In this document: in pieces, positions 2,502 through 37,459 of the stretch
Position numbering within the stretch: position 1 is the first letter of the stretch
Layout: the number at the start of each line of letters is the position of its first letter
IMG/VR virus record: IMGVR_UViG_2695420539_000016
From: a virus
Lineage: Duplodnaviria > Heunggongvirae > Uroviricota > Caudoviricetes
DNA: 37,459 bases
Direction: 5' to 3' (one strand)
Program-made: the position numbers and the translations under genes
The notes under the pieces: generated by a model
Databases searched by the model: none
What the model was told of the DNA's origin: nothing
Seen by the model: the letters and a program-made list of their open reading frames with translations, nothing else

Positions 2502-2509
2502 GGTAAACA

Positions 2510-4399: not shown

Positions 4400-4421
4400 T
4401 GCAATTAATAAAATGATTATA

Positions 4422-4445
4422 GCGGCCTTACATTAGTAAGGCCGC
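4422..4445. terminator. Hairpin between convergent pin stub and GmrSD-like gene (possible bidirectional terminator)
   Basis: Mirror of 6468..6491: 9-bp stem GCGGCCTTA / TAAGGCCGC, 6-nt loop. Confidence 0.35.
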
Positions 4446-4624
4446 AACTCACTATTAAATCCTTTAATTTGCATCAAGAACAGCACTGTCAGCCCTAGGC
4501 TCTCGGACTTTGTACCGCTTATCTTGTCTTCAAAAATCAGCTCGCATCCTGCACAGTTCAACGCATTACGTTGTAGATCGATTTTCTGGTCATTTGTTGA
4601 TACGCAAACATAGCCAATAAGCAT
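4433..4624 (-). pseudogene. Truncated Hin/Gin/Pin-family serine invertase (pin 5' stub, about 45 native codons)
   Basis: MLIGYVCVSTNDQKIDLQRNALNCAGCELIFEDKISGT... matches Pin/Gin N-terminus, then diverges into 18 unrelated codons and stops; conserved Arg before the catalytic Ser is Cys. Confidence 0.75.
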
Positions 4625-4650
4625 GGTAGCTCCCTCTGACAAAAGCAGGA

Positions 4651-5058: not shown

Positions 5059-5066
5059 GTATATCT

Positions 5067-5462
5067 ATGATTTATTTCTCAAAATCGACTAATGGTTTTT
5101 TCTTTGATGGTATAAACAGCGACATGCCTGCTGACATTGTTGAGATAAGTACAGACTTATACAATGAATTAATTGCCGGACAGCAGGAAGGGGGTAAATT
5201 AATCACGTCAGATGAAAATGGTTTACCGGTACTGAAATCTCCGGCGATTGATTATGTCGCACGTGCTGAAAATCAGCGAATGCAGTTACTTGCTCATGCC
5301 GATAATGTCACAGCTGACTGGCGAGTGGAATTAATGCTTGGTGATATCAGCAGTACAGATAAAGAAAAACTATCCGCCTGGATGGACTACAAAAAAGAAG
5401 TAAAAGCCGTCGACACTTCGACGGCTCCTGAGATTAGCTGGCCTGAGTTACCGGAGGTGTAG
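5067..5462 (+). CDS. Tail fibre assembly protein (Tfa), partner of exon A
   Basis: C-terminal motif VDTSTAPEISWPELPEV typical of lambda Tfa / Mu U family; weak RBS before ATG at 5067. Confidence 0.75.
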   Translation: MIYFSKSTNGFFFDGINSDMPADIVEISTDLYNELIAGQQEGGKLITSDENGLPVLKSPAIDYVARAENQRMQLLAHADNVTADWRVELMLGDISSTDKEKLSAWMDYKKEVKAVDTSTAPEISWPELPEV

Positions 5463-5871
5463 GCCATTCAATATCTGGAGCACTGGAGGTATCCACCAGT
5501 TCCAGTGCGTCCAGGTAATCCAGCCACAAATTATATAGTGCCAGTTCCTCGTCTTTCAGACGACCAATAGCGGCTTTACCGGGCCATTGTTTACTGTTCA
5601 TGTATTCGTTGGCCTGATTAAGCAATAATTGCCTTTCTGATTCTGCCTGTTGAATAAGTTCTTCATGCGATGGTGGAGGTATTAGTGCCCATGTGGGTAA
5701 TCCATTTTTTCCTGCAACACGAATTTTGTCATATGGGGGCGTATTGATTGCAAATTCATTATAAACATCATCACTGACAGCCAGAGCATCATCTGGCCAT
5801 GAATTTGCATTAATGTAATCATCCTTAAGCGCAGGATTCACAAAAATGTTTAATGATGGACTATAAAACAT
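5434..5871 (-). CDS. Tail fibre assembly protein (Tfa'), partner of exon B
   Basis: 145 aa ending ...LVDTSSAPDIEWPTPPVTQAS; convergent with the other tfa and overlapping its 3' end. Confidence 0.75.
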   Translation of the reverse strand: MFYSPSLNIFVNPALKDDYINANSWPDDALAVSDDVYNEFAINTPPYDKIRVAGKNGLPTWALIPPPSHEELIQQAESERQLLLNQANEYMNSKQWPGKAAIGRLKDEELALYNLWLDYLDALELVDTSSAPDIEWPTPPVTQAS

Positions 5872-5872
5872 A

Positions 5873-6262
5873 TTAACCCCCTATAGCGATATAACGACCT
5901 AATACAGCATTTGCAGCAGTCGCTATGCTTGAAAAACCGCGGAACTGATTTGATGTAATTGCAGAAGCCGACAGGATTCCTGCGCCTGAAGGTGTATGCC
6001 CCACATGACTAACTATCATTCCATAACATGCTGACGGAAAGGCAAAAGGAAAATCATTAAGATATCCGGCATCTTCACCACCAGACCCACCAAATCTCGC
6101 CTGCCCCCACTGAATAATCAGTGTTCTCCGGGAACCTGAAATAATTAACGGAATCGTTACATACCCATTCAGACCAATGACACCCGATGCAGTGCCAGCC
6201 AGAGATAATTCTCCCAAACCAACGTTTATGAAAATGCAGAAATAACGAGAAAATGGCATCAT
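5873..6262 (-). CDS. Tail-fibre variable C-terminal exon B (alternative receptor-binding domain) with the same 18-codon flank-derived leader
   Basis: Shares MMPFSRYFCIFINVGLGE with the exon A ORF, then a different Gly/Ser-rich C-terminal domain. Confidence 0.5.
   Translation of the reverse strand: MMPFSRYFCIFINVGLGELSLAGTASGVIGLNGYVTIPLIISGSRRTLIIQWGQARFGGSGGEDAGYLNDFPFAFPSACYGMIVSHVGHTPSGAGILSASAITSNQFRGFSSIATAANAVLGRYIAIGG
6209..6234. other. Crossover site ixR of the invertible segment, copy 1
   Basis: TTCTCCCAAACC-AA-CGTTTATGAAAA; inner half is the exact inverted repeat of the ixL inner half. Confidence 0.55.
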
Positions 6263-6288
6263 TCCTGCTTTTGTCAGAGGGAGCTACC

Positions 6289-6480
6289 ATGCTTATTGGC
6301 TATGTTTGCGTATCAACAAATGACCAGAAAATCGATCTACAACGTAATGCGTTGAACTGTGCAGGATGCGAGCTGATTTTTGAAGACAAGATAAGCGGTA
6401 CAAAGTCCGAGAGCCTAGGGCTGACAGTGCTGTTCTTGATGCAAATTAAAGGATTTAATAGTGAGTTGCGGCCTTACTAA
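6289..6480 (+). pseudogene. Truncated pin-type invertase stub (right-arm copy)
   Basis: Same as 4433..4624; GGGAG RBS then ATG; stop codon lies in the loop of the downstream hairpin. Confidence 0.75.
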
Positions 6481-6491
6481 TGTAAGGCCGC
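6468..6491. terminator. Hairpin between pin stub and GmrSD-like gene
   Basis: GCGGCCTTA-CTAATG-TAAGGCCGC, followed by TATAATCATTTTATT. Confidence 0.35.
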
Positions 6492-6513
6492 TATAATCAT
6501 TTTATTAATTGCA

Positions 6514-8403
6514 TTAATCGTATTTTGGCCATACTTTCAATGCAATTTCCCCCAACTTTTTACCTCGCTCCTGTATTTCACTCTCATCCCATTTATCCTT
6601 AAGTATAAGTGGTATGTTCAGTCGTAGATTGGTGTGGACGATGAGAGCATCACGTTTTTTCAGAAATACAGCATTCTGAACGGAACGGTTTACGCTAAGG
6701 TTAAGCAAAGTTAGATTTCCCAACGTAGCTATCGCTTGTTGCCGTTTCCTTACCAGTAGCTGTTCAGGGGTAAGATCGGTTCCAGACAGAACAATTTGGT
6801 TCATTACCGTAGCATCTGAATTTGTCACCATATGACCATTTTCGAGAGGCCAACAGGAATACCAACTTTGAGGCATAAGATGATCGATATCGAGATTAGA
6901 AAGATTTGGAACATCAGGCTTTTCTGTCTTCACTTGGCGACAAAGTTCTCTTTCAAGTTCCGTTAACATTGAGCGCATTTTCGGTGCGTCGAGCCTGCCA
7001 GGATAAAGTGGAGCATTGATGCAAGCGTTGAGAAATTCTGAGTCCCCAGGCCAACGTGAGGCTTCGCCATTTAAGCTATTGAGGATATTACGTAACTCAA
7101 CACTGGAAATTTCCGTTTTAGACAAGTGTCGCAATACATTCATAAATACATTGTTGTAATTCTTTGGCGTCAGGCCACATACGGATCTTCGTACTACGTA
7201 GGAGACAAGATCATTATACATGGCTGCTTTCTCATCATCGGCGATGTTAGCTATCGAAATGAACAAAGCAAGCGGATAGAGTGTCGTCACATCATAGGCT
7301 GCGATGCGATGTCCAAAGTGTGAGATGGGGGTTGTGCCAAAACCACCAACCAATTCTTTATATTGTGATGCATATTGTTTGAGGCGCTTTACTTGCAGAT
7401 CTGCTCGTTGTGAAGGCAAGTCCTTACTTACATAATCACGATACTCATTGTAAAGGCGAGACAGATCAATTTCACGCTGCCTTTCTGATTGCAATGTCGC
7501 ATGTACAAGCCACTCCATGCGTGGTTTATTAATACGTCCACGGCGTTGCTTTTCCGACCAGTATTTATCTTCAAAGATCTTCCACTCATTTTCATATAAT
7601 TCAATAGCATTAATATTTTCATGCTCAGCGCACATAAAGATATAGTTGCGAATAAGATCCGTTGCATGAAGTTCCGCTCCTCGCCCATTTAATGTTTCAA
7701 AAATTATTTGGGCATCATCTTCAGCTTCGAGAAATATGCTTACCAGTTTCAGATCCGTCAAGACAGCCTCAATTAGTGCTACAGCATTTTCTTGTGGTGA
7801 GTGGTTTTCTATTTTAATCCATTTTATAAAGGCTTCAGTAAAAAACCATAATGCCTCTAGTGACGGCGGGTGGTTGAAATGTTTACGTAACGTACCATGT
7901 TGCGTGAAGCTATCAGAAAATACATTACGGAGATCGTCAATATTATCAACATTAAGACTTTGAATAAAATGAGTTTGATCTCGAAAAGTTGGCCACAGTT
8001 TGAAGCATTCTACCTTTTTATTTCTCATCGTTGCTTCGTTTGTATTTTTCAAGCAAGTCAATACTAACCCTTCCAGTTCAGAAAGGCCTGTAGCACGCAA
8101 TGATAATCGAATGGATGCCAGAATATATTGAAGAGTGGTTAAACGTTGCTGGCCGTCAATAATATGTATGGTATCTACACCTAACAAGCTGTTTTTGAGT
8201 TGAGGTTCCAGCACCACCGCGCCGAGGAAATGAGGGGTTGGTTTTGTTCCCGAAAGTCGGCTCTGTGCTTTTTCGAAGATATCCTCCAACAAAGCTGACC
8301 ATTGGTTTCGTTGCGTCCATACGTAGGCACGTTGATAGAATGGAACACGATATTGTCGTTGATTTTGGAAAATTTGCTGGATGGTTAGCGTTTCGGATTT
8401 CAT
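6514..8403 (-). CDS. DUF262/DUF1524 GmrSD/BrxU-type candidate type IV restriction endonuclease (right-arm copy)
   Basis: Identical 629-aa translation to 2510..4399. Confidence 0.8.
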   Translation of the reverse strand: MKSETLTIQQIFQNQRQYRVPFYQRAYVWTQRNQWSALLEDIFEKAQSRLSGTKPTPHFLGAVVLEPQLKNSLLGVDTIHIIDGQQRLTTLQYILASIRLSLRATGLSELEGLVLTCLKNTNEATMRNKKVECFKLWPTFRDQTHFIQSLNVDNIDDLRNVFSDSFTQHGTLRKHFNHPPSLEALWFFTEAFIKWIKIENHSPQENAVALIEAVLTDLKLVSIFLEAEDDAQIIFETLNGRGAELHATDLIRNYIFMCAEHENINAIELYENEWKIFEDKYWSEKQRRGRINKPRMEWLVHATLQSERQREIDLSRLYNEYRDYVSKDLPSQRADLQVKRLKQYASQYKELVGGFGTTPISHFGHRIAAYDVTTLYPLALFISIANIADDEKAAMYNDLVSYVVRRSVCGLTPKNYNNVFMNVLRHLSKTEISSVELRNILNSLNGEASRWPGDSEFLNACINAPLYPGRLDAPKMRSMLTELERELCRQVKTEKPDVPNLSNLDIDHLMPQSWYSCWPLENGHMVTNSDATVMNQIVLSGTDLTPEQLLVRKRQQAIATLGNLTLLNLSVNRSVQNAVFLKKRDALIVHTNLRLNIPLILKDKWDESEIQERGKKLGEIALKVWPKYD

Positions 8404-8659
8404 TGTTTACCTATAAATAACATTAAGTGACATTCCACAAGAGTAAGAAATTCATCTGAGTCAGAACAATCATTTTTATGTAGTTATGATACAGTGTATT
8501 TGTTACTGGTGAAGTAAAAATAAGAAACCCCGCTTTTGAATGCTGACGCGCTACGGTTTCATTGGATATTTTTTGTCTCTCCTCCATCCCGTTGGTGTTC
8601 TGTTTAGACTGATAACTTGCTGTTTTAATTGATATTAGTTTCTTGCGCCGCCCAATCAT

Positions 8660-8685
8660 GGTTGGTGGGTTGGTGGGTGGGTGGG
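8660..8685 (+). repeat. G-quadruplex-type motif upstream of the GmrSD-like gene
   Basis: ggttggtgggttggtgggtgggtggg. Confidence 0.35.
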
Positions 8686-9221
8686 AGTTAAATCCACATT
8701 GGTATGAAGAACATAGAATATGAATTAGTGTTTCAGAATTGCTTCAGCCATCACTTTTTAATACGTTCAATTTGAATGTTTATTTCCGAAACAATTTTTT
8801 CAGGTTTCAGTCCCTCGTTAGATTGCACAAAATCTCTAATTTGCATCATTCGATGTGCACAAATTTGTAATTCGCTATAAACACTTAGCTCGTCAGATTC
8901 ATTTTGAGATTGTTCACCTGTTTAAAATTCTACATAAGTATGTGGCGGATTGTGATAAACACGAGAAATCGGGGTTGGCCACCATTCCTCACCGGTCACT
9001 ACGTCCGCATCGAATAGTACAGTTTTGTCAATTTCCATTAATTTCTGGATAAGAACAGAAGTTTTCAAGCGAACCTCCATTTTGCCATAAAGTGGTTATC
9101 AAAACGCTACGTAAACTATACAAAATCAGCGAGTTATGGTGAAGGTAAAAAAACAAGTTTAGATGTTCGTTAAGTATAAAATTGTTTTAATTCAATTGGA
9201 TATAATAATTTTCTAAATCTA

Positions 9222-9386
9222 ATGTTACGCCATATGGGCTGGACTGAAGCCGCAGACCTGATTGTTAAAGGTATGGAAGGCGCAATCAACGCCAAGACTG
9301 TAACCTATGACTTCGAACGTCTGATGGAAGGCGCTAAACTGCTGAAATGTTCAGAATTTGGTGATGCGATCATCAAGAACATGTAA
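9222..9386 (+). pseudogene. icdC: icd 3' fragment (icdC), prophage right attachment relic
   Basis: 54 codons encoding the Icd C-terminus; homology starts abruptly at 9222 after AT-rich phage-side DNA. Confidence 0.75.
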
Positions 9387-9408
9387 TCACTACATGTGTT
9401 TAATATTG

Positions 9409-9441
9409 CAACGGGCGTATAACACGCCCGTTGTTTTATTT
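9409..9441 (+). terminator. icd rho-independent terminator
   Basis: CAACGGGCG-TATAACA-CGCCCGTTG followed by TTTTATTT. Confidence 0.55.
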
Positions 9442-9488
9442 ATGTAGGTATTATTAATAGCATATCGAGCATATTTATATAAAACCCT

Positions 9489-9812
9489 TTACTTGAGCCC
9501 ATATGGGCATATTTTTATAATGCAACTATTATGCAAACATTTATTTGTTATTTTGCTTTCTCCTGGAGGACACTCTTGACTGCTTTTGAGTAGACTCCAT
9601 AAATCCTTGTTGAATGGTGCGATGTTATAAATAGTAATAGGATATTCTTTATCTTTAAGGATAATTCCAGATTTAACCGGTGTAAATATACTGCCAGGAG
9701 GGAGAAATATAGTAGATTGATACCAGATGATCATTTTCATATTACCCCATATGGCTGAAAAAGATATGCCGCATGAAGGTTGAATTATCGTGTCAATTAC
9801 TATCCACTTCAT
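9489..9812 (-). CDS. iraM: Anti-adaptor protein IraM (right-arm copy)
   Basis: Identical translation to 1101..1424. Confidence 0.65.
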
Positions 9813-10269
9813 TTGTTATGTCTTATCCCACGGTATTTAATATAGTTCATTTGGATGTTCATTTCTTTATTTTGCATATGAGTATATTACCCCTTCAAAA
9901 AATAAATTAATTAAAACGATTGCTTATATAAAACAAAATTTAAAGCAAGGAATCTCAATGGATGTTAAACAAAATGAGATTTAGTGAAAACAATAAATTA
10001 TTCACTTCGTTTTAGATTTGTTTAGCTATAATGTTATACATTCAAATGACTGAACATCCTGTAATTAAAACATAGCCTTTATGCTACTTTGTGCCAATTT
10101 GCTAAACATTATGGTTGCCTTTTTATATAACGATAATAATGAATATAAGCATGACATGAGAATAAGGTTTCAATTTTTGAGTTATATAGGAAAGGTTTAA
10201 CCTGTTCCTGGCTAAAATACATATAACTGGATGATGACTAAACCAAAACACATGTGCGTTAAGTATTGA

Positions 10270-10299
10270 AACGGGCGTATGGCACACCCGTTGTTTTTA
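10270..10299 (+). terminator. Second icd-terminator-like hairpin (diverged duplicate)
   Basis: AACGGGCG-TATGGCA-CACCCGTT then TGTTTTTAT; upstream bases also resemble the icd 3' UTR. Confidence 0.3.
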
Positions 10300-10507
10300 T
10301 AAATATATTAACCGTTATAAAATAACGTATAGAAAGTCAAGTGATCACATTTCAAATATCAATTTGATAGTATTGGCATGGTGATTATTTATGGGTAGCA
10401 ATAAAAGGACAGTATTTATCATCCATAGGGATAGTCTCTGTACTTTTATTCCCATTATGCTAATGCCTTACTGAATTATGAAGCATTTCTTAAGCATCCA
10501 ACTTTAG

Positions 10508-10912
10508 CTAGATTAATGGTTTATTATTTTCTACATCTTCAATATATAAAAGCGTATTATCAATGGCGTAGTAACTGCGTTTGTTATGATTAACATCAGT
10601 AACCCACCGGAAAACGCCCGCGCCTGCTAGTGTTGAACAGTATTCCCGAAATGTAGATTTTCCGCAAATATGAAGCAATGCGGCCTCTTTTATTTTAGCA
10701 GGGTTCTTGGTCGTACTAACTTTTAACAGGTTCCTGGTTCCTCTTAATAACAAAACCGTGTCATCGTGAGTAATAATTCTGATGTTATCCGTAGCCAGAT
10801 AATAAATGTAATGTGCAATACGGTGATGTTTTAATTCTGAATAAAACCAGGAGAAGTTTTGCTCTTTTCTCACTTGCTCAAACATCTTTTGAAAAACAAC
10901 GACCTGATCCAT
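10508..10912 (-). CDS. ycgX: YcgX-like small protein (right-arm copy)
   Basis: Identical translation to 1..405; GAGG RBS lies at 10913+ so the gene context continues naturally past the visible palindrome edge. Confidence 0.5.
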   Translation of the reverse strand: MDQVVVFQKMFEQVRKEQNFSWFYSELKHHRIAHYIYYLATDNIRIITHDDTVLLLRGTRNLLKVSTTKNPAKIKEAALLHICGKSTFREYCSTLAGAGVFRWVTDVNHNKRSYYAIDNTLLYIEDVENNKPLI

Positions 10913-11132
10913 CAGGATAATAACCTCTTGTTAGTTGTGAGACTGCGTAGTGTGCACGATCGGTTTTACCACTTCAATCTGGTCTGTCCTTTGGCTGTGA
11001 TATGTACAGAGTGTGATAGAGGGAATATCTGAATTCTCCCGGTGAGCATTTTGCAACGGACCAGCTCCGGTACAAACGCTGTTGTGGGTTCAGATTATAA
11101 CATTCTGTCTAAGGGGCGGGATAAAGGTGAAA

Positions 11133-11400
11133 TTAGGGGGCATGAAAGATGACTTTATAACCTTGCTCACCCCAATGTTGTAAAAGTTCGTTTTGCCTTC
11201 TCGTTGGTGCCATGCCTGTCCAGACAATCAATGTTTGCGTCGGGAACAGTTCCGGGCGCGGCGATTCAATGGGATCAGCAAGAACAGAAATGTGCCATCC
11301 TGACAATGATAAACGCCATGCTTCCAGCCACAATCGTGCTCTCTCTTCAACATTCCACGCCATCAGAATGGCTTCTTTACCGGGCTTACGGCGCATTACT
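11133..11400 (-). pseudogene. bluR: 3' fragment of a BluR/MlrA-type MerR-family regulator; by synteny probably bluR (ycgE)
   Basis: C-terminal roughly 85 codons of the 168-aa ORF (...[52 protein letters not shown]...) resemble the BluR/MlrA C-terminal domain as I recall it; no MerR HTH region exists upstream on this strand. Confidence 0.45.
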
Positions 11401-12289
11401 GCTGGAGCCTGAGCCGGAGCATTATTCATCTTTCGCCAGTGGTGCCGTTCCCGCGGCATCACAACCGCTGGCGGATGATCCTGTCGTTCGGGCCGTGTTC
11501 CGTAATGAGGCAGTGATTCGTCGTGCTGGTGGGGTGGAATGTCTTGAAAGCTGGTTACTTCGTGAAAAAGGCTGCCAGTGGCCTCATTCCGACTGGCACA
11601 GCGAGAACATGACCACAATGCGACACGCGCCGGGCGCAATCCGTCTGTGCTGGCACTGCGATAACCAGTTGCGCGATCAGTTCACGGAACGGCTGGAATC
11701 AATGGCAACGGATAACTGTGCCCGCTGGGTATTGTCTGTTGTGCGTCGGGATCTCGGTTTTGATGATAGTCACGTTGTGACAATGCCGGAACTGTGCTGG
11801 TGGCTGGTTCGTAATGACCTGGCGGATGCCTTACCGGAAAGTGCAGCCCGTAAGGCACTGAGATTACCGAAGCCTGTTGTGCCGTCTGTCACCCGGGAAA
11901 GTGACCTTGTGCCTTCGGTTCCTGCCACCAGCATCATCCAGGATAAGGCGAAAAAGGTGCTGGCGCTGAAAGTGGATCCGGAGTCGCCGGAGTCTTTTAT
12001 GTTACGCCCAAAACGTCGCCGCTGGGCTAATGAAAAGTACACGCGCTGGGTTAAGACACAGCCGTGTGCATGTTGTGGAAAGCTTGCTGATGATCCCCAC
12101 CACCTGATAGGCGACGGTCAGGGGGGAATGGGTACAAAAGCGCATGACCTCTTTGTGTTGCCTTTGTGCAGAAAGCATCACGACGATCTGCATGCGGATA
12201 CCGTGGCATTTGAAGAAAAGTATGGCTCCCAGTTGGAGCTGATATTTCGTTTTATCGATCGTGCGCTGGCAATTGGCGTGCTGGCGTAA
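11204..12289 (+). CDS. DUF968-type phage protein (Qin YdfU-like) with C-terminal Cys/His zinc-binding motif; 5' end uncertain and probably truncated by the junction
   Basis: C-terminus ...[24 protein letters not shown]...[12 protein letters not shown]; the track start is a TTG and the first roughly 60 codons are antisense to the bluR fragment; first in-frame ATG beyond the joint is at 11609. Confidence 0.5.
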
Positions 12290-12302: not shown

Positions 12303-13055
12303 ATGAACCTTGAAGCCTTACCAAAATATTACTCCCCAAAATCTCCAAAATTGAGCGATGACGCACCGGCGACAGGCTCAGGTGGTTTAACGATTACGGA
12401 TGTGATGGCTGCGCAGGGGATGGTGCAGTCGAAAGCACCGCTTGGGTTTGCCTTATTCCTGGCAAAAGTTGGTGTTCAGGATCCTCAGTTTGCGATTGAA
12501 GGTCTGCTCAATTACGCGATGGCACTGGATAACCCGACATTGAACAAATTGAGTGAAGAAACCCGGTTACAGATCATCCCTTACCTTGTGAATTTTGCCT
12601 TTGCTGATTATTCCAGGTCTGCGGCAAGTAAGGCTCGCTGTGAGCATTGTGCTGGTACTGGATTTCATAATGTATTGCGCGAAGTGGTGAAACACTCCAG
12701 AAGCGGGGAATCTGTTATCAAGGAAGAGTGGGTGAAGGAACTATGTCAGCATTGCCATGGTAAGGGAGAAGTCAGCACCGCGTGCAGAGGGTGTAAGGGT
12801 AAAGGTATTGTCCTGGATGAAAAAAGAACCCGGCTTCATGGCACGCCTGTTTATAAGATTTGTGGGCGTTGCAGTGGAAACCGGTTTAGCCGTTTACCAA
12901 CCACACTGGCGCGGCTTCATGTCCAGAAGCTGGTACCAGACCTGACGGATTATCAGTGGTACAAAGGATATGCAGATGTCATTGATAAACTGGTTACAAA
13001 GTGCTGGCAGGAGGAAGCTTACGCTGAAGCACAATTGAGAAGGGTGACGAGATAA
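12303..13055 (+). CDS. Late-gene antitermination protein Q (QuuQ/YdfT-like)
   Basis: 250 aa from ATG 12303 with GGAGAA RBS; four CxxC pairs (CEHCAGTGF, CQHCHGKGE, CRGCKGKG, CGRCSGN); lies directly upstream of the lysis cassette. Confidence 0.65.
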   Translation: MNLEALPKYYSPKSPKLSDDAPATGSGGLTITDVMAAQGMVQSKAPLGFALFLAKVGVQDPQFAIEGLLNYAMALDNPTLNKLSEETRLQIIPYLVNFAFADYSRSAASKARCEHCAGTGFHNVLREVVKHSRSGESVIKEEWVKELCQHCHGKGEVSTACRGCKGKGIVLDEKRTRLHGTPVYKICGRCSGNRFSRLPTTLARLHVQKLVPDLTDYQWYKGYADVIDKLVTKCWQEEAYAEAQLRRVTR

Positions 13056-16378: not shown

Positions 16379-16795
16379 TCAATTATCTCCTTTAAAGGAG
16401 TCGTATTCACCCCAATCAGCAAACCCAATCGGTCTTTTAGGGGTCTCTAAGCATAAGCGTTTTTTTCGGATTAGCAGGACATTTATTTGAGATACATGCT
16501 GAACAAGTTCTACAGGACTGCCATCCTCCAGAGTACCAATGAAAGAAATTAATGATGGATTCCAGTAGCTTATGTCTGTGAAATGAAATTCAATGTTTTT
16601 ACCAAAGCTAGCTAGTTGTCCTCCTACCTCATACTCTTCTTCAAGTTCACGGTGAAAATCATTTATCCAGCATATAAGGCGTCTATGAAATTCATTTGCA
16701 AGATTGTAGTCCTTTGGAACATATGGCTGTGAGTATTTGAGGAAATCATTCATGTAGTTATTTGTCATCAGGGCGTCCTTTACGAGCATAACCAT
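16379..16795 (-). CDS. Hypothetical 138-aa protein, antisense to the late operon (moron 2)
   Basis: Only substantial minus-strand ORF lying in an intergenic gap of the late region; AT-richer than its neighbours. Confidence 0.45.
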   Translation of the reverse strand: MVMLVKDALMTNNYMNDFLKYSQPYVPKDYNLANEFHRRLICWINDFHRELEEEYEVGGQLASFGKNIEFHFTDISYWNPSLISFIGTLEDGSPVELVQHVSQINVLLIRKKRLCLETPKRPIGFADWGEYDSFKGDN

Positions 16796-29220: not shown

Positions 29221-29751
29221 ATGAAAGGCTATATCACAGCAAGTGTAATTCTTGGAGCAGCGGCTATTTTTTCATCTCTCATAATCTCTGGCAACATCTC
29301 CTTTAAAGATGAACATATTATTCAGTTATCTGGAGGAGCCATAAAACTTGGTGATGTTTATAAAGAAAATAAATTGATAAGTGCAAAGATTATTTTTCCA
29401 GATAATCAGGGTGAACAGATTCTTGTTGTCGACGGCAATCCTGAAAACTTTAAGGAGGATTTTCAGGAGAAATTAAATAAAGTAATAAAAACTTTAAATG
29501 CGTCAAAGAAAAAAGATGAAGAGAAAGTTAGCCTGGATAATTTAAGTGTTATTGAAGAGTCTAAACTAGAGCTCGTTTCTGCGGTGCGTTACTCTGCTCA
29601 GTATGTTCCTATGTTTACTCTGACGCTGGACAAAAAAGAAATTACCATGCCTAAAAATACGGTAATATTTCCATTTGCCAGCGATGAAACAGCTAAGTAT
29701 TTAAATGAACAACAGCAAAAGTATAAAGATTCGTTGTTTCTGACTCGCTAA
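29221..29751 (+). CDS. Signal-anchored/secreted hypothetical protein (moron 3); candidate superinfection-exclusion factor
   Basis: 176 aa with hydrophobic N-terminus MKGYITASVILGAAAIFSSLIISG, Lys/Glu-rich remainder; AT-rich island inside the tail operon. Confidence 0.5.
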   Translation: MKGYITASVILGAAAIFSSLIISGNISFKDEHIIQLSGGAIKLGDVYKENKLISAKIIFPDNQGEQILVVDGNPENFKEDFQEKLNKVIKTLNASKKKDEEKVSLDNLSVIEESKLELVSAVRYSAQYVPMFTLTLDKKEITMPKNTVIFPFASDETAKYLNEQQQKYKDSLFLTR

Positions 29752-29812: not shown

Positions 29813-31141
29813 ATGACGTGGAAAGACAGGCTTCAGGACGCGTCATTTCGCGGCGTGCCGTTTAAGGTTGAAGAAGAAAGTGCGGGAACCGGTCGCCGTG
29901 TGGAAACACATGAATACCCGAACCGCGACAAACCCTATACCGAAGACCTGGGGAAAATCACTTTTCGCCCGTCCATCACGGCTTATGTGGTGGGAGATGA
30001 CTGCTTTGACCAGCGCGATCGCCTGATTGAAGCGCTGAATAAACCAGGTCCCGGCACGCTTGTCCACCCGACATATGGTGAGCTGAAAGTCTGTGTTGAC
30101 GGGGAAGTTCGGGTCAGCACATCGAAAAGTGAAGGGCGTATTGTCCGCTTTGACCTGAAGTTTGTCGAAGCAGGAGAACTCTCTTACCCCACATCAGGTG
30201 CGGCGACGGCGCAGACGCTGATGTCATCCTGTTCTGCACTGGATGACTGCATCAGTGACAGCTTCAGCGGTTTCAGTATCGATGGTGTGGCGGATTTCGT
30301 GCAGAACGACGTTATCGGTAATGCCAGCATAATGCTGGGGTATGTTTCTGATGCGATGAAAGTGGTGGATTCTGCCGTATCGGATGCCGCCAGGCTGTTG
30401 CAGGGGGATATCTCGGTACTTCTGCCGCCGCCATCGTCAGGCAAAAATTTCGTTGAACAGGTGCAGAAAATGTGGCGTACCGGGAAACGCCTTTATGGTA
30501 ACGCCAGCGACCTGGTCACCATGATCAAAACGCTTTCTGGTGTCAGCCTCGGCAGCGATTTGCAACCGCGCGGCGTCTGGAAAACGGACAGTAAAACCAC
30601 CGCCACAGCGACGCAGCAGCGTAACATGGTTGCCAGCACCCTTCGTACGACTGCAATCAGCGAAGCGGCGTATGCCGTTACCCGATTGCCTGCGCCAACA
30701 ACTTCTGCGGTGATGCAGAATGCCGCAGTGGGGCAGTCAACAACACCCGCGCAGAGCTCCGGCTGGCCTGCCGTCACGCATCCGGTGCTGAACAATGCAC
30801 CGGCGGTAAAAAACACGGTTGACCTGCCAACGTGGGAAGAACTGACCGACATTCGCGACACACTGAATACGGCAACTGATAAGGAGTTGTCCCGTACAAC
30901 CAGTGATGCGCTGTTTCTGGCGCTGCGCCGGGTGAAAGCAGATCTGAATGCGGATATCAACACGCGCCTTGAACAGTCTGCACGGATCATTCAGCGCACG
31001 CCGGATGAGGTTTTACCCGCGCTGGTGCTGGCGGCGACCTGGTTTGATAACGCGGCGCGTGACGCGGACATTATCCGGCGTAATGCCATTACGCATCCCG
31101 GCTTTGTGCCGGTGATCCCTCTGAAGGTGCCAGTGCAATGA
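29813..31141 (+). CDS. DNA circularisation protein (Mu gpN-like)
   Basis: 442 aa; position after the tape measure. Confidence 0.7.
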   Translation: MTWKDRLQDASFRGVPFKVEEESAGTGRRVETHEYPNRDKPYTEDLGKITFRPSITAYVVGDDCFDQRDRLIEALNKPGPGTLVHPTYGELKVCVDGEVRVSTSKSEGRIVRFDLKFVEAGELSYPTSGAATAQTLMSSCSALDDCISDSFSGFSIDGVADFVQNDVIGNASIMLGYVSDAMKVVDSAVSDAARLLQGDISVLLPPPSSGKNFVEQVQKMWRTGKRLYGNASDLVTMIKTLSGVSLGSDLQPRGVWKTDSKTTATATQQRNMVASTLRTTAISEAAYAVTRLPAPTTSAVMQNAAVGQSTTPAQSSGWPAVTHPVLNNAPAVKNTVDLPTWEELTDIRDTLNTATDKELSRTTSDALFLALRRVKADLNADINTRLEQSARIIQRTPDEVLPALVLAATWFDNAARDADIIRRNAITHPGFVPVIPLKVPVQ

Positions 31142-32217
31142 ACGATAACGTCACGCTACGGGTAAATGGCCGAGAGTGGAATGGCTGGACATCGGTGCGC
31201 ATCGGTGCCGGTATTGAACGGCTGGCGCGGGATTTCAGCGTGGAGATCACCCGCCAGTGGCCGGGAGATGAGGGTATCACCACGCTTCAGCCGCGCATTA
31301 AAAATGGTTCAAAAGTGGAAGTGCTGATTGGTGATGAGCTGGTGATCACCGGCTGGGTGGAGGCGACCCCCGTTCGTTACGATGCCCGTTCGGTCAGCAC
31401 CGGTATTGCCGGACGTAGTCTGACTGCTGACCTGATTGACTGTGCAGCCGAACCGACACAGTTTAACGGACGATCGCTGGTACAGATTGCGCAGGCGCTT
31501 GCTGCGCCTTTCGGCATTGAGGTGGTGAACAGCGATGCGCCGTCGGGTGTTATTCCGGATGTCCAGCCTGATCACGGTGAAACGGTGATCGAGGTGATCA
31601 ACAAAATACTCGGTCAGCAGCAGGCGCTGGCTTATGACGACCCGCACGGCAGGCTGGTGATTGGTGGTATTGGCTCAACGCGGGCACATACCGCGCTGGT
31701 ACTTGGGGAAAACATCCTTTCCTGTGATACGGAGAAGAGTATCCGGGAGCGGTTTTCAGTTTACCAGGTGGCGGGGCAGCGTGCCGGAAACGACGATGAT
31801 TTCGGTGAGGCCACCACCACCGCGCTGCGGGCCCGCACAGAGGATGCATTTATTGCCCGTTACCGTCCGATGTATATCAGGCAGACAGGGCAGGCTACGG
31901 GGGCAGGCTGTATTGCGCGTGCTGACTTTGAAGCCCGACAACGGGCGGCGCGGACGGATGAAACCACCTATGTGGTGCAGGGCTGGCGACAGGGTAACGG
32001 TACGCTGTGGCAGCCCAACCAGCGGGTGATTGTCTTCGATCCGGTCTGTGGTTTCGACAATACCGAACTGCTTGTCTCGGAAGTCACGTTTACTCAGGAC
32101 CAGAATGGCACCCTGACGGAAATCCGTGTCGGCCCACCTGATGCTTATCTGCCTGAACCCGAAGCCCCCGGCGCGCGGAAAAAGAAAAAAGCCAGAGTAC
32201 AGGAGGACCCGTTCTGA
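31138..32217 (+). CDS. Tail/baseplate hub protein (Mu gpP / P2 gpD-like)
   Basis: 359 aa. Confidence 0.65.
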   Translation: MNDNVTLRVNGREWNGWTSVRIGAGIERLARDFSVEITRQWPGDEGITTLQPRIKNGSKVEVLIGDELVITGWVEATPVRYDARSVSTGIAGRSLTADLIDCAAEPTQFNGRSLVQIAQALAAPFGIEVVNSDAPSGVIPDVQPDHGETVIEVINKILGQQQALAYDDPHGRLVIGGIGSTRAHTALVLGENILSCDTEKSIRERFSVYQVAGQRAGNDDDFGEATTTALRARTEDAFIARYRPMYIRQTGQATGAGCIARADFEARQRAARTDETTYVVQGWRQGNGTLWQPNQRVIVFDPVCGFDNTELLVSEVTFTQDQNGTLTEIRVGPPDAYLPEPEAPGARKKKKARVQEDPF

Positions 32218-32765
32218 TGAGGACGATTGAAGCCATGCAGCGACAACTTCTCGGCCTGATTGGGCGGGCAGTGGTGAAAAGCATCAGTGCCGCCACGAAA
32301 TGTCAGACCGTGGATGTGTCCCTGATTGCCGGTGAACCCAAAGCCGGGGTTGAACATCTTGAACCCTACGGTTTTACCGCAAGGGCAAACAGCGGTGCGG
32401 AAGCGGTGGTGTTGTTTCCGGATGGCGACCGTTCTCATGCGGTGGTTGTTACGGTGTCGGACCGGCGCTACCGCCTGAAAGGGCTGCAGACGGGTGAGGT
32501 GGCTGTCTATGACGATCAGGGGCAGTCCGTGACGCTGACCCGGGAGGGGATCGTGGTGGACGGTGCAGGTAAAACGATCACGTTTCGCAATTCACCTAAA
32601 GCACGTTTTGAAATGGACCTGGAAGTGACAGGACAGGTGAAAGACCTGTGCGACTCCAGCGGCACCACCATGTCAGCGATGCGGCTTGCCTATAACGGGC
32701 ATCGTCACAGAGAGAACGGTCAGGGCAGTAACACCGACAAACCTGATAAAGCGATGGAGGCATGA
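32217..32765 (+). CDS. Baseplate assembly/spike protein (gpV / Mu gp45-like)
   Basis: 182 aa. Confidence 0.65.
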   Translation: MRTIEAMQRQLLGLIGRAVVKSISAATKCQTVDVSLIAGEPKAGVEHLEPYGFTARANSGAEAVVLFPDGDRSHAVVVTVSDRRYRLKGLQTGEVAVYDDQGQSVTLTREGIVVDGAGKTITFRNSPKARFEMDLEVTGQVKDLCDSSGTTMSAMRLAYNGHRHRENGQGSNTDKPDKAMEA

Positions 32766-33190
32766 TGGAACTGTGGCTGACGGTGAACGGTAAACGCACC
32801 TGCGCCAGCGCACCGCTGGATCCGCTGACCCGCGCCGTGGTGATTTCCCTGTTTACCTGGCGGCGGGCGGAGCCTGATGACAACGCCGACGTCCCGATGG
32901 GATGGTGGGGGGATACCTGGCCTGCGGTACAGAATGACCGTTACGGCTCCCGACTGTGGCTGCTTCAGCGCAGCAAACTGACCAATCAGCTGGTGCTGAC
33001 GGTAAGGGGGTATATCCGCGAATGCCTGCAATGGATGATTGATGACGGCGTGGTGTCCCGTATTGATCTGGATATCCGCCGCACCGGGATTAATGAACTG
33101 GGTAACAGTATCACTCTCTGGCGTCGTGACGGACCGGTAATGATTTCTTTTGATGATCTGTGGAGTGCGATAACGCATGGCGGACAGTGA
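32762..33190 (+). CDS. Baseplate protein (GP46 / gpW-like)
   Basis: 142 aa; motif RYGSRLWLLQR. Confidence 0.6.
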   Translation: MMELWLTVNGKRTCASAPLDPLTRAVVISLFTWRRAEPDDNADVPMGWWGDTWPAVQNDRYGSRLWLLQRSKLTNQLVLTVRGYIRECLQWMIDDGVVSRIDLDIRRTGINELGNSITLWRRDGPVMISFDDLWSAITHGGQ

Positions 33191-34235
33191 ATTTCAGCGC
33201 CCGACGCTGGCTGAAAATATCAGTATGCTCCGTAACGATTTATTCGCCAGGCTGGACGTCAGCGACACGCTCCGGCGCATGGATGAAGACGTGCGGGCAA
33301 AGGTGTATGCGGCGGCGCTGCATACGGTTTACGGGTACATCGATTATCTGGCAATGAACATGCTGCCTGACCTGTGCGATGAGTCCTGGCTGGCGCGACA
33401 TGCTGCGATGAAACGGTGTCCGCGCAAGGGGGCCACGGCTGCCAGCGGGTATATGCGCTGGGAAGGTGTCAGCGATGGCCTGAAGGTGACCGCCGGGAGT
33501 GTTATTCAGCGCGATGACCTGGTTCAGTATACTGCAACTGCCGATGCAACCAGCTCCGGTGGTGTCCTGCGCGTGCCGATCGCCTGCTCAAATGCAGGCG
33601 CGGTCGGTAACGCTGACGACGGTACGGCATTAATCCTGGTCACGCCGGTGAATGGTCTGCCGTCTTCCGGTGTGGCTGACACCCTGACAGGCGGATTTGA
33701 TACTGAAGAGCTGGAAACGTGGCGCGCCCGCGTCATTGAGCGGTATTACTGGACGCCGCAGGGCGGGGCTGACGGGGACTATGTCGTATGGGCTAAAGAA
33801 GTGCCCGGCATTACCCGCGCATGGACATACCGTCACTGGATGGGAACGGGAACTGTCGGTGTGATGATTGCCAGCAGTGACCTGATTAATCCCATTCCGG
33901 AAGAATCAACGGAAACGGCGGCAAGACAACATATCGGGCCACTGGCCCCGGTGGCAGGCTCTGATTTGTATGTGTTCAGGCCGGTGGCACATACGGTGGA
34001 TTTTCATATCCGCGTGACGCCGGACACACCGGAAATACGGGCTGCCATCACCGCGGAGTTGCGTTCGTTCCTGCTGCGTGATGGTTATCCGCAGGGAGAA
34101 CTGAAGGTATCGCGTATCAGTGAGGCGATTTCCGGTGCGAACGGGGAATACAGCCATCAGTTGCTTGCACCGGCAGACAATATCTCCATTGCAAAAAATG
34201 AACTGGCGGTACTGGGGACGATTTCATGGACGTGA
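33177..34235 (+). CDS. Baseplate J-like protein (Mu gp47-like)
   Basis: 352 aa. Confidence 0.7.
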
Positions 34236-34810
34236 CAAACGATGATTACATCCGTCTGTTGTCGGCACTGTTGCCCCCCGGTCCGGCGTGGTCAGCCAGC
34301 GATCCGGCGATTGCCGGTGCGGCACCGTCATTAACCCGCGTTCATCAGCGTGCGGATGCCCTGATGCGGGAGCTGGATCCGCGCACCACCACTGAACTGA
34401 TAAACCGCTGGGAGCGTCTGTGCGGTCTGCCGGATGAATGTATTCCCGCAGGGACACAGACCCTTCGCCAGCGTCAGCAACGGCTGGATGCGAAGGTTAA
34501 CCTGGCGGGTGGCATCAACGAGGATTTTTATCTTGCACAGCTTGCTGCCCTGGGCAGACCAGATGCCGCCATCACGCGATACGACAAAAGCACGTTCACC
34601 TGCTCATCGGCCTGTACTGACGCTGTGAACGCGCCTGAATGGCGGTATTACTGGCAGGTCAACATGCCAGCCGCCACCAACACCACCTGGATGACATGTG
34701 GCGATCCCTGTGATTCCGCACTGCGTATCTGGGGCGACACAGTTGTCGAATGTGTGCTTAACAAACTCTGCCCGTCGCATACCTACGTAATTTTTAAATA
34801 TCCGGAGTAA
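34226..34810 (+). CDS. Tail protein, YmfQ / Mu gp48-like (DUF2313-type)
   Basis: 194 aa, immediately upstream of the tail fibre gene. Confidence 0.65.
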
Positions 34811-34813
34811 TCC

Positions 34814-35470
34814 ATGCATCGTATAGACACGAAAACCGCGCAGAAGGATAAGTTCGGCGCGGGTAAGAACGGTTTTACCCGTGGTAACCCCCAGACCGGC
34901 ACGCCTGCCACCGATCTGGATGATGACTACTTTGACATGTTGCAGGAAGAGCTCTGCAGCGTGGTGGAGGCATCCGGTGCCAGCCTGGAGAAGGGGCGGC
35001 ATGACCAGCTGCTTACCGCGCTTCGTGCGCTGCTGTTAAGTCGCAAAAATCCGTTTGGCGATATCAAATCGGACGGCACGGTGAAAACGGCTCTTCAAAA
35101 CCTTGGTTTGGGAGAAGCGGCAAAACGGAATGTAGGTAACGGGCAAAACCAAATTCCGGATATGGCGGCGTTTGCCAGTTCACTTTCATCAACGGGTTTT
35201 CAAAAACTCCCTTCAGGTCTGATTATTCAGTGGGGTATTGTCAGTGGAGCATCAAACTATACGGTGACTTACCCGGTAACATTCCCAAATCGTTCACTTG
35301 CGCTGTTGGCTGTGCCACATACAACGTCGTTGGCTGGTATATCTGCAATGGGCATTGCGAACTGTTCTGATATCACCAAATCACAGTTCTATATAATTGT
35401 TGGCGGTATATCTCAGGGAGAAATTGTCAAATATGAAAGGTCCTGTTTTTGGGTAGCAATCGGTGTATAG
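34814..35470 (+). CDS. Tail fibre protein: constant N-terminal part fused across ixL to variable C-terminal exon A
   Basis: 218 aa; N-terminus [29 protein letters not shown] typical of P2 H / Mu S / e14 Stf fibres; crossover site lies at codons 93-101. Confidence 0.8.
35091..35116. other. Crossover site ixL (Hin/Gin/Pin-type, native context)
   Basis: CTCTTCAAAACC-TT-GGTTTGGGAGAA; left half matches 10 of 12 to hixL TTCTTGAAAACC as I recall it. Confidence 0.6.
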
Positions 35471-35478
35471 GTATATCT

Positions 35479-35874
35479 ATGATTTATTTCTCAAAATCGA
35501 CTAATGGTTTTTTCTTTGATGGTATAAACAGCGACATGCCTGCTGACATTGTTGAGATAAGTACAGACTTATACAATGAATTAATTGCCGGACAGCAGGA
35601 AGGGGGTAAATTAATCACGTCAGATGAAAATGGTTTACCGGTACTGAAATCTCCGGCGATTGATTATGTCGCACGTGCTGAAAATCAGCGAATGCAGTTA
35701 CTTGCTCATGCCGATAATGTCACAGCTGACTGGCGAGTGGAATTAATGCTTGGTGATATCAGCAGTACAGATAAAGAAAAACTATCCGCCTGGATGGACT
35801 ACAAAAAAGAAGTAAAAGCCGTCGACACTTCGACGGCTCCTGAGATTAGCTGGCCTGAGTTACCGGAGGTGTAG
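35479..35874 (+). CDS. Tail fibre assembly protein (Tfa)
   Basis: Identical to 5067..5462. Confidence 0.75.
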   Translation: MIYFSKSTNGFFFDGINSDMPADIVEISTDLYNELIAGQQEGGKLITSDENGLPVLKSPAIDYVARAENQRMQLLAHADNVTADWRVELMLGDISSTDKEKLSAWMDYKKEVKAVDTSTAPEISWPELPEV

Positions 35875-36283
35875 GCCATTCAATATCTGGAGCACTGGAG
35901 GTATCCACCAGTTCCAGTGCGTCCAGGTAATCCAGCCACAAATTATATAGTGCCAGTTCCTCGTCTTTCAGACGACCAATAGCGGCTTTACCGGGCCATT
36001 GTTTACTGTTCATGTATTCGTTGGCCTGATTAAGCAATAATTGCCTTTCTGATTCTGCCTGTTGAATAAGTTCTTCATGCGATGGTGGAGGTATTAGTGC
36101 CCATGTGGGTAATCCATTTTTTCCTGCAACACGAATTTTGTCATATGGGGGCGTATTGATTGCAAATTCATTATAAACATCATCACTGACAGCCAGAGCA
36201 TCATCTGGCCATGAATTTGCATTAATGTAATCATCCTTAAGCGCAGGATTCACAAAAATGTTTAATGATGGACTATAAAACAT
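35846..36283 (-). CDS. Tail fibre assembly protein (Tfa')
   Basis: Identical to 5434..5871. Confidence 0.75.
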   Translation of the reverse strand: MFYSPSLNIFVNPALKDDYINANSWPDDALAVSDDVYNEFAINTPPYDKIRVAGKNGLPTWALIPPPSHEELIQQAESERQLLLNQANEYMNSKQWPGKAAIGRLKDEELALYNLWLDYLDALELVDTSSAPDIEWPTPPVTQAS

Positions 36284-36284
36284 A

Positions 36285-36632
36285 TTAACCCCCTATAGCG
36301 ATATAACGACCTAATACAGCATTTGCAGCAGTCGCTATGCTTGAAAAACCGCGGAACTGATTTGATGTAATTGCAGAAGCCGACAGGATTCCTGCGCCTG
36401 AAGGTGTATGCCCCACATGACTAACTATCATTCCATAACATGCTGACGGAAAGGCAAAAGGAAAATCATTAAGATATCCGGCATCTTCACCACCAGACCC
36501 ACCAAATCTCGCCTGCCCCCACTGAATAATCAGTGTTCTCCGGGAACCTGAAATAATTAACGGAATCGTTACATACCCATTCAGACCAATGACACCCGAT
36601 GCAGTGCCAGCCAGAGATAATTCTCCCAAACC
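36285..36632 (-). CDS. Silent alternative tail-fibre C-terminal exon B (expressed only after inversion)
   Basis: Identical to the exon in 5873..6262; the current orientation leaves it without the constant region. Confidence 0.55.
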   Translation of the reverse strand, partial: GLGELSLAGTASGVIGLNGYVTIPLIISGSRRTLIIQWGQARFGGSGGEDAGYLNDFPFAFPSACYGMIVSHVGHTPSGAGILSASAITSNQFRGFSSIATAANAVLGRYIAIGG

Positions 36633-36646
36633 AACGTTTATGAAAA
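36621..36646. other. Crossover site ixR, copy 2
   Basis: Same as 6209..6234. Confidence 0.55.
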
Positions 36647-36700
36647 TGCAGAAATAACGAGAAAATGGCATCATTCCTGCTTTTGTCAGAGGGAGCTACC

Positions 36701-36892
36701 ATGCTTATTGGCTATGTTTGCGTATCAACAAATGACCAGAAAATCGATCTACAACGTAATGCGTTGAACTGTGCAGGATGCGAGCTGATTTTTGAAGACA
36801 AGATAAGCGGTACAAAGTCCGAGAGCCTAGGGCTGACAGTGCTGTTCTTGATGCAAATTAAAGGATTTAATAGTGAGTTGCGGCCTTACTAA
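36701..36892 (+). pseudogene. Truncated pin-type invertase stub (third copy)
   Basis: Identical to 6289..6480. Confidence 0.75.
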
Positions 36893-36903
36893 TGTAAGGC
36901 CGC
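36880..36903. terminator. Hairpin between pin stub and GmrSD-like gene (third copy)
   Basis: Identical to 6468..6491. Confidence 0.35.
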
Positions 36904-36925
36904 TATAATCATTTTATTAATTGCA

Positions 36926-37459
36926 TTAATCGTATTTTGGCCATACTTTCAATGCAATTTCCCCCAACTTTTTACCTCGCTCCTGTATTTCACTCTCATC
37001 CCATTTATCCTTAAGTATAAGTGGTATGTTCAGTCGTAGATTGGTGTGGACGATGAGAGCATCACGTTTTTTCAGAAATACAGCATTCTGAACGGAACGG
37101 TTTACGCTAAGGTTAAGCAAAGTTAGATTTCCCAACGTAGCTATCGCTTGTTGCCGTTTCCTTACCAGTAGCTGTTCAGGGGTAAGATCGGTTCCAGACA
37201 GAACAATTTGGTTCATTACCGTAGCATCTGAATTTGTCACCATATGACCATTTTCGAGAGGCCAACAGGAATACCAACTTTGAGGCATAAGATGATCGAT
37301 ATCGAGATTAGAAAGATTTGGAACATCAGGCTTTTCTGTCTTCACTTGGCGACAAAGTTCTCTTTCAAGTTCCGTTAACATTGAGCGCATTTTCGGTGCG
37401 TCGAGCCTGCCAGGATAAAGTGGAGCATTGATGCAAGCGTTGAGAAATTCTGAGTCCCC
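36926..37459 (-). CDS. GmrSD/BrxU-type DUF262/DUF1524 gene, 3' portion (gene runs off the window end)
   Basis: C-terminal residues identical to the 629-aa protein. Confidence 0.75.
   Translation of the reverse strand, partial: GDSEFLNACINAPLYPGRLDAPKMRSMLTELERELCRQVKTEKPDVPNLSNLDIDHLMPQSWYSCWPLENGHMVTNSDATVMNQIVLSGTDLTPEQLLVRKRQQAIATLGNLTLLNLSVNRSVQNAVFLKKRDALIVHTNLRLNIPLILKDKWDESEIQERGKKLGEIALKVWPKYD

Follow-up and report, generated by a model that had tools for sequence, protein, structure and literature searches.

A 2357-nt terminal repeat at an e14/Pin-type tail-fibre switch in a draft Escherichia coli record, probably a product of assembly and scaffolding redundancy

The closest described relative of the locus examined here is the e14 P segment of E. 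coli K-12, which is associated with PinE of the Hin/Gin/Cin/Pin family, occurs in nature in both orientations, and is also inverted in trans by PinQ and PinR (PMC12529663). The stretch of DNA we analysed (37,459 nt, referred to here as the window) carries a tail-fibre switch at the same locus, within a prophage in icd whose attR lies in icdC upstream of iraM, and it shares with e14 the 12-2-12 layout of the crossover sites, the site core (TTGGTTTGGGAGAA in the window and TTGGTTTGGGAGAAGG / CCTTCTCCCAAACCAA in e14), and the provision of alternative tail-fibre C-termini with tfa genes that face each other. It differs in the length and cassettes of the segment (1797 bp in e14 compared with 1532 bp here), in the adjoining invertase gene, which is cut to its first ~45 codons, and in the replacement of the 3' end of pinE plus mcrA by a GmrSD type IV enzyme; e14 is moreover a 15-kb remnant, whereas the prophage here is a full one of 41 kb.

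The draft E. coli record from which the window comes (GCA_001285665.1, CXZR01000003.1) is 292,519 nt long; the window is its final 37,459 nt, and both end at the same base. Directly adjoining the window to the left are pdeG, ycgZ, bluF and an intact bluR in normal chromosome (100% identity), and the archived record holds both this intact bluR and a truncated copy, bluR'. The record is a draft chromosomal scaffold in which the last 37.5 kb consist of two assembled blocks, P and Q, with a one-N gap between them. An initial annotation had proposed that the window contains a unit of 30412 bp repeated at a fixed offset, and that this might be a tandem amplification, a concatemer, or a circular molecule written with terminal redundancy. 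The circular molecule is refuted by the record itself, which is chromosomal and not circular, is far longer than one unit, and has the first repeat copy in an internal position with chromosome to its left. The features of the window are as follows.

1–4690 (no strand): hairpin arm 1, the inverted right flank of the switch, running 485 nt left of the window into the intact bluR; it carries ycgX (1–405, +), iraM (1101–1424, +), the GmrSD gene (2510–4399, +) and the pin stub (minus strand)
4679–4704 (+): crossover site in the flipped-isomer form, TTTTCATAAACG-TT-GGTTTGGGAGAA; the first repeat copy begins at the central TT (4691)
4691–6222 (no strand): invertible tail-fibre segment, measured core to core, with a fibre C-terminus (4691–5058, +), tfa (5067–5462, +), tfa' (5434–5871, −) and the alternative fibre C-terminus (5873–6259, −)
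6209–6234 (+): right crossover site, TTCTCCCAAACC-AA-CGTTTATGAAAA, where hairpin arm 2 starts
6289–6432 (+): invertase stub, the first ~45–48 codons of a pinE-like serine recombinase
6514–8403 (−): GmrSD-family type IV restriction enzyme of 629 aa, the 'defence gene' (PADLOC and Pfam)
9219–11397 (no strand): attR and host genes, 100% identical to E. coli 19AR0254, namely icdC (attR, 9219–9386), iraM (9489–9812, −), ymgK, ymgL and ycgX (10508–10912, −); block P ends at 11397
11133–11397 (−): bluR 3' fragment, the last gene of block P
11398 (no strand): gap placeholder, N in the archived record and A in the window
11399–35102 (+): block Q from its start to the switch, the prophage late region
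11399–12289 (+): DUF968 gene without its first 33 codons (Pfam)
12303–13055: Q antiterminator, followed by lysis genes, HNH, TerS, TerL, portal, capsid, sheath, tube, tape measure and baseplate genes, with the constant part of the tail fibre from 34814
35091–35116 (+): left crossover site, CTCTTCAAAACC-TT-GGTTTGGGAGAA; the second repeat copy begins at the central TT (35103)
35103–37459 (no strand): the reported second copy, identical to 4691–7047 and cut by the end of the record, containing the invertible segment, the right site (36621–36646), the stub (36701–36844) and the last 177 codons of GmrSD (36926–37459)

The crossover sites are inverted sites of ~26 bp with half-sites around a 2-bp core; a perfect inverted repeat of 14 nt is common to both and agrees with the repeats published for e14 (PMC12529663). 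The region of the right site shares 90% identity with the right site of K-12 e14 and the 5' end of pinE, and Pfam Gp53-like_C and Caudo_TAP domains are found on both strands of the segment, as alternative cassettes. Switches of this family have an intact serine invertase gene beside the segment, but here the only adjoining invertase sequence is the stub, which is annotated in complete genomes as a pseudogene missing the C-terminus, with K-12 pinE homology ending at 6424. By analogy with hin (PMC3798978), the equivalent position of a Fis-bound enhancer would be at ~6320–6390, inside the retained stub. The segment has opposite orientations in the near-clonal complete genomes 22-245 and 22-250, and both junction types are common, being carried by 275 and 782 complete genomes. 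The 60-mer at 4661–4720 is present (as the reverse complement) in the flipped isomer 22-250 only, and the junction 60-mer at 35103 is found in strain 22-245 only. Of the four junctions that the switch can form, the window carries three: X−/L+ (only in 22-250), and Y+/L+ and L+/X+ (only in the near-twin 22-245).

The assignment of the defence gene is clear, as Pfam GmrSD_N and GmrSD_C (DUF262 / DUF1524) are present in one protein and PADLOC mREase_IV covers residues 1–629 (E = 0). We note that in another strain the prophage/GmrSD locus contains IS3 insertions and IS-bounded rearrangements.

The repeat itself is real as text: 4691–7047 and 35103–37459 are identical over 2357 nt with no mismatches, far beyond chance, the offset is 30412, and the window does end inside the second copy, as had been claimed. 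The proposed unit was also given its correct contents, namely the late prophage half with the GmrSD defence gene, followed by icdC-iraM-ycgX and the 3' fragment of bluR. What did not hold was the periodicity, which stops at 4691, where 1–4690 share only ~25% identity with 30413–35102 and are out of register with the unit; the window amounts to 1.08 units, with 2357 nt beyond one unit, and there are no two units in register. Nor is a concatemer supported, since the unit is not a complete phage genome: it has no int, xis, immunity (repressor) or replication genes, includes icdC-iraM-ycgX-bluR' from the host, and at 30.4 kb corresponds to 74% of the length of the 41.2-kb prophage. Both boundaries of the repeat coincide with the central dinucleotide of a crossover site of the e14/Pin type. 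We also considered a repeat boundary at the record-end position (7047), and found this to be unsupported, with the segment single-copy in 300 genomes; in one strain an IS3 element lies 19 nt from the point equivalent to 7047, which is probably a coincidence. The cut 177-aa GmrSD product is on record in one contig only, where it touches the end of that contig.

The sequence that precedes the first repeat copy forms a hairpin, with 1–4690 being the perfect reverse complement of 6223–10912, the right flank of the switch. When the flank outside the window is included from the archived record, the arms reach 5189 nt and the second arm ends exactly at the N. A tandem-inversion-duplication model was rejected because the strand is unchanged across the joint and there is no switching back.

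We consider it probable that the second copy is a product of assembly and scaffolding redundancy, and it is not a demonstrated second piece of DNA. According to this explanation, the cultured isolate would have held both orientations of the e14/Pin-type switch, which would make the hairpin possible, with the junction at 4691 coming from the flipped isomer and those at 6222 and 35103 from the unflipped isomer. When both isomers are present in a culture, an assembly path can lead from the right flank into the segment and back out into the right flank. Block P would enter from the chromosome through bluF, the intact bluR and ycgX to GmrSD and the pin stub, traverse the invertible segment, and then leave through 5189 nt that are the reverse complement of its own flank, giving the hairpin, while block Q would run as ordinary prophage late region into the same invertible segment and continue through 839 nt of the same flank to the end of the record. 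With the same switch and right flank traversed by each block, 2357 nt would be written twice and be identical by construction. We infer a mixed culture in which an invertase acted in trans, and that the link between P and Q is no real adjacency. The record resembles known assembly artefacts at invertible segments in that the repeated parts are 100% identical with boundaries exactly on crossover sites, junctions of both isomers surround one segment, a single N stands at the join, one block end is at a paralogue repeat, and the redundancy is cut by the end of the record.

The initial annotation closed its unit with a bluR::phage joint, yet the base concerned, 11398, is an N in the archived record (position 16748 of L023) and an A in the window, this being the sole difference across 15,058 compared bases; there is accordingly a single N at this point and no sequenced junction, head-to-tail or otherwise. 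(The suggestion that the A was an untemplated base or a paralogue allele was dropped once the archived base proved to be an N.) Some scaffolders put a single N where a join is unresolved. As the joint is a gap between assembled blocks, the offset of 30412 is no measured distance and includes an unsized gap. No record spanning the joint was found by BLAST of 5426 complete E. coli genomes, phage records and plasmid records; an exact 32-mer across it had no match in viral, genome and metagenome contig collections (a weak test, as the pattern held the placeholder A), and the six ORFs across it that were looked up also had no match. These include the record's own call of 352 aa (L023 16581–17639, window 11231–12289), which spans the N and is unmatched presumably because the N inside it breaks an exact match. 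The three block ends share no microhomology or k-mer longer than 8 nt.

The block ends provide evidence in both directions. From 11399 to 37459 block Q is 100% identical to 19AR0254 over 26,061 nt, and it starts at reference position 25455, the base after a site that is variable between DUF968 paralogues. The exact runs flanking this site, 285 and 85 nt, are the longest between the paralogues, and the DUF968 segment has 2–4 copies per related genome. Block Q therefore starts at the edge of a multi-copy exact repeat, a classic short-read contig break. In contrast, block P ends at reference position 55865 in the single-copy gene bluR and block Q ends at 51515 within GmrSD; neither is a repeat boundary in the reference, and these two ends in unique sequence have no obvious cause, unlike the usual artefact, and count against redundancy. 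So does the head-to-tail order with a minimal gap, which is what would be expected of a real junction between branch points in the assembly graph, and scaffolders normally need read pairs to link the end of one block to the start of the next.

The head-to-tail order across a minimal gap and the end of block P within bluR also speak for a real tandem duplication, or higher amplification, of ~30.4 kb in the chromosome of the isolate, extending from DUF968 through the late genes, switch, GmrSD, attR, iraM and ycgX to bluR', which we regard as possible but rather unlikely. It would have arisen by an illegitimate head-to-tail join whose tiny junction node was lost to become the N while the assembler walked round the cycle, and block P would end in unique bluR sequence as at a graph branch. 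The coexistence of intact bluR and truncated bluR' is as predicted by a duplication, in which nothing would be inactivated since bluR' and DUF968 abut 5' to 5'. As in known duplication joins and lambda-bio-type products, the joined points lie head-to-tail ~30 kb apart and bring together late genes, attR and host genes; unlike them, the junction here is an N, with no in-register pair of units and no episome replication module. Against a duplication we also set the position of the DUF968 end on the edge of the largest exact paralogue repeat, which a random breakpoint would hit in less than 1% of cases, the 1.08 units with sequence left of 4691 out of register, and the absence of the joint from every other E. 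coli genome, phage and plasmid record searched. The content of the unit, which has the late genes and attR with host DNA on its right but lacks the int side, would also fit a 30.4-kb circle from aberrant excision (a lambda-bio-type specialised transducing genome), or its concatemer, co-assembled with the chromosome. We find this scarcely credible, as a molecule without replication and immunity modules would not persist at an abundance that could be assembled, the unit is only 74% of the prophage length, the record is chromosomal and not circular, and the junction is again the N.

Two further explanations concern the hairpin and the gap. The palindrome with its 5.2-kb arms would be physical if a ~30-kb head-to-tail duplication (late operon plus GmrSD, iraM and ycgX) were followed by recombination between switch copies, with a trans-acting invertase joining the right site of one copy to the left site of the other and inverting the ~29-kb stretch between them; one switch would then have the right flank on either side. 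Hin-type enhancers can act across many kb (PMC3798978), and by our reasoning a two-copy duplication with such an inversion predicts the order bluR-X(inverted)-L-X::Y-L, which matches the record to 36620 but differs over the last 839 nt. However, this requires a rare long-range inversion on top of an unproven duplication, while every junction in the window is ordinary for one isomer and a mixed culture is simpler, and so we judge it very unlikely. Alternatively, the N may hide unassembled sequence, such as an IS element or a collapsed prophage repeat, with P and Q neighbours only via a shared repeat. This would suit the start of block Q in a multi-copy prophage segment and the IS3 insertions and IS-bounded rearrangements at this locus in another strain, but the same record contains an intact bluR, and a single N, as opposed to a sized gap, lends no support to a long insert; we think this improbable.

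Assembly and scaffolding redundancy therefore remains our preferred explanation of the second copy. The placeholder base given for the N made a scaffold gap look like a recombination joint, and the invertible segment in a mixed culture would have given both the hairpin and the spurious periodicity. When draft assemblies are scanned, N should stay visible and perfect repeats at the ends of records should be distrusted. The biological weight of the finding is small, with a switch related to the well-studied e14 P segment and an unproven duplication. Were the duplication true, it would add to the known amplifications of prophage regions and would have doubled iraM and a type IV restriction gene; were the palindrome physical, a phage tail-fibre switch would have brought about a large rearrangement of the chromosome.

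The direct repeat that the initial annotation described is present: positions 4691–7047 recur at 35103–37459 with an offset of 30412 and no mismatches in 2357 nt, a perfect match that is beyond chance, and the end of the window falls within the second copy. The repeating unit of 30412 bp derived from it did not stand, as identity at this offset is only ~25% to the left of 4691, meaning that reading such a unit past one full turn would not give the window, and the bluR::phage joint was found to be a single N in the archived record. We located this record through the 177-aa GmrSD product that is truncated by the end of the window, which occurs on exactly one contig on record (NCBI GCA_001285665.1, CXZR01000003.1; 292,519 nt) and touches the contig end, and a look-up with the 135-aa ORF at 4651–5058 gave positions 249,711–270,118 of the same contig. 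The window and the record differed at one of 15,058 positions, 11398, which is A in the window and N in the record (the placeholder had become a base before the initial annotation was made). The joint is therefore a gap, one letter long, that separates two assembled blocks, referred to here as P (left) and Q (right), and as the offset of 30412 spans it, this figure does not represent a measured distance.

Normal chromosome with an intact bluR makes up the 5350 nt that precede the window on its left and matches the reference at 100% identity, and the record is thus a chromosomal draft sequence and not a 30-kb circle. The suggestion of a circular molecule with terminal redundancy fails on this account, and that of a phage concatemer also failed when tested. 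The window starts exactly on the ycgX (DUF1398) ATG while the record extends 255 kb further left, and it looks as though this boundary had been placed at the edge of a gene, not at the end of a contig.

Taken part by part, the whole window is 100% identical to complete Escherichia coli genomes, including 19AR0254, in which there is one ordinary locus with a 41.2-kb prophage integrated in icd.

Features of the record, the window and the prophage locus (ref, coordinates in 19AR0254)
Left of window: pdeG, ymgC, ariR, ymgA, ycgZ, bluF, intact 243-aa bluR
Block P: chromosome up to bluR nucleotide ref 55865
Block Q: DUF968 nucleotide ref 25455 to the record end
Window 1–4704: reverse complement of ref 50677–55380
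Window 4691–11397: reaches ref 55865
Window 11399–37459: ref 25455–51515
Contig 254576–259764 and window 6209–11397: inverted hairpin arms, from comparison with the archived record
Window 4679–4704: crossover site, exact reverse complement of the site at 6209–6234
Window 6209–6234: crossover site (12-2-12), TTCTCCCAAACC-AA-CGTTTATGAAAA
Window 35091–35116: crossover site (12-2-12), CTCTTCAAAACC-TT-GGTTTGGGAGAA
Prophage order 1: int, xis, immunity and replication genes
Prophage order 2: DUF968, Q antiterminator, lysis genes
Prophage order 3: HNH, terminase, HK97-type head genes, contractile tail
Prophage order 4: tail fibre, 1.5-kb invertible segment
Prophage order 5: recombinase pseudogene, DUF262 gene
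Prophage order 6: icdC (attR), then iraM, ycgX, bluR, bluF

A second repeat, absent from the initial annotation, is inverted: window 1–4704 is the perfect reverse complement of 6209–10912 with 1504 nt between the arms, and it runs a further 485 nt past the window start in the archived record, giving arms of 5189 nt, the second of which stops exactly at 11397. The edges of both repeats share one short motif (TTGGTTTGGGAGAA at 4691 and 35103, with the complement TTCTCCCAAACCAA at 6209), and the direct repeat starts on the two central bases of a crossover site. In the e14 P segment, the inverted repeats read TTGGTTTGGGAGAAGG and CCTTCTCCCAAACCAA as published (PMC12529663).

This hairpin encloses the invertible tail-fibre segment and mixes junctions of both switch orientations. 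Strains 22-245 (5,073,334 bp) and 22-250 (5,073,329 bp), which are from one source and have near-identical complete genomes, carry the segment in opposite orientations; when the two are compared, the junctions at 35103 and 6222 are present in 22-245 only and that at 4691 in 22-250 only, on the other strand, and the window lacks the fourth possible junction, which 22-250 has. Each junction type is common in complete genomes, and all the switch junctions that the window contains are normal for one or other isomer. The pair flanking the first segment copy cannot coexist on one normal chromosome, however, because it places the right flank to the left of the segment as well as to the right. The straightforward reading is that the culture contained both orientations; an assembly graph would then permit a path from the reversed right flank through the segment and out along the forward right flank. 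Only a stub is left of the adjacent invertase (the 5' remnant of a pinE-like gene, 6289–6432), so that inversion would have to be catalysed in trans. The differing orientations of 22-245 and 22-250 despite the pin 5' stub imply the same, and trans action finds support in work showing inversion of the e14 segment by PinQ and PinR, which come from other cryptic prophages (PMC12529663). The hin gene carries a Fis enhancer ~100 bp from the site (PMC3798978), and the stub appears still to span the equivalent place, a likeness of position only.

We consider it probable that the repeats reflect scaffold-level redundancy, with block P a hairpin chimera of isomers and the P–Q link no demonstrated adjacency; both blocks would cross one switch and enter one flank. 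The first base of block Q is ref 25455. At the preceding base (25454), this DUF968 gene differs from a paralogue carried by a different lambdoid prophage in a related genome; in the paralogous stretch of 2.3 kb, this site has the longest exact run (285 nt) to its left and an exact run of 85 nt to its right. The KilA-N/DUF968 segment has 2–4 copies in genomes carrying the prophage at 100% identity, and with these long exact runs the block Q start therefore resembles an ordinary repeat-induced contig end, in a place where the random breakpoint of a rearrangement would rarely be expected. The segment, which comprises window 11399–12289 and the reference sequence to the left of it, is thus a contig-break hotspot and possibly a place of recombination between prophages as well. 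Against an artefact of contig ends are the other termini, as no repeat or shared sequence was found for the end of P in single-copy bluR or of Q in GmrSD, and these two ends would be either arbitrary read-extension stops or real branch points.

A real head-to-tail duplication of ~30.4 kb, with the N standing in for a short junction node that dropped out, would fit the head-to-tail order across a minimal gap, the fact that unique sequence surrounds the end of block P, and the presence of bluR in both an intact and a truncated form, but is unlikely, as the repeat lacks two marks of a tandem duplication, a sequenced junction and units in register. There is only a slim chance that repeat sequence is hidden in the gap, and a physical palindrome, produced by an invertase acting between two switch copies, is very improbable. 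Hardly credible is a non-replicating circle from aberrant excision, which lacks a replication module.

The switch in the window is related to the e14 P segment, which belongs to the Hin/Gin/Cin/Pin family, sharing the sites, cargo and orientation but without the intact adjacent invertase. Compared with K-12 e14, the left site and fibre constant part are 96.7% identical, while the right site is kept with no more than the first 136 nt of pinE, at 90% identity. Where K-12 has the remainder of pinE and mcrA, the window (6433–9218) has a gene for a 629-aa GmrSD-family type IV restriction enzyme, a swap between type IV enzymes at the prophage's attR end. In strains AHM8C160RI and AHM8C212RI, the GmrSD gene is interrupted at the equivalent of 7028/7029 by IS3 copies, which also border what is left of the rearranged locus, and Kiwa genes (KwaA/KwaB) adjoin icd. 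Elsewhere, a 176-aa ORF (phrog_5485, 29221–29751) between the tape-measure and DNA-circulation genes is found in some relatives and missing from others, with an IS200-type Y1 transposase beside it in two, and a DUF6173 gene on the opposite strand (16379–16768, minus), between the lysis and HNH/terminase genes, has a moron-like placement.

There is nothing new in kind here, and what is useful is a lesson in method: the substitution of a base for an N, combined with a segment that flips, gave the appearance of a repeating unit.
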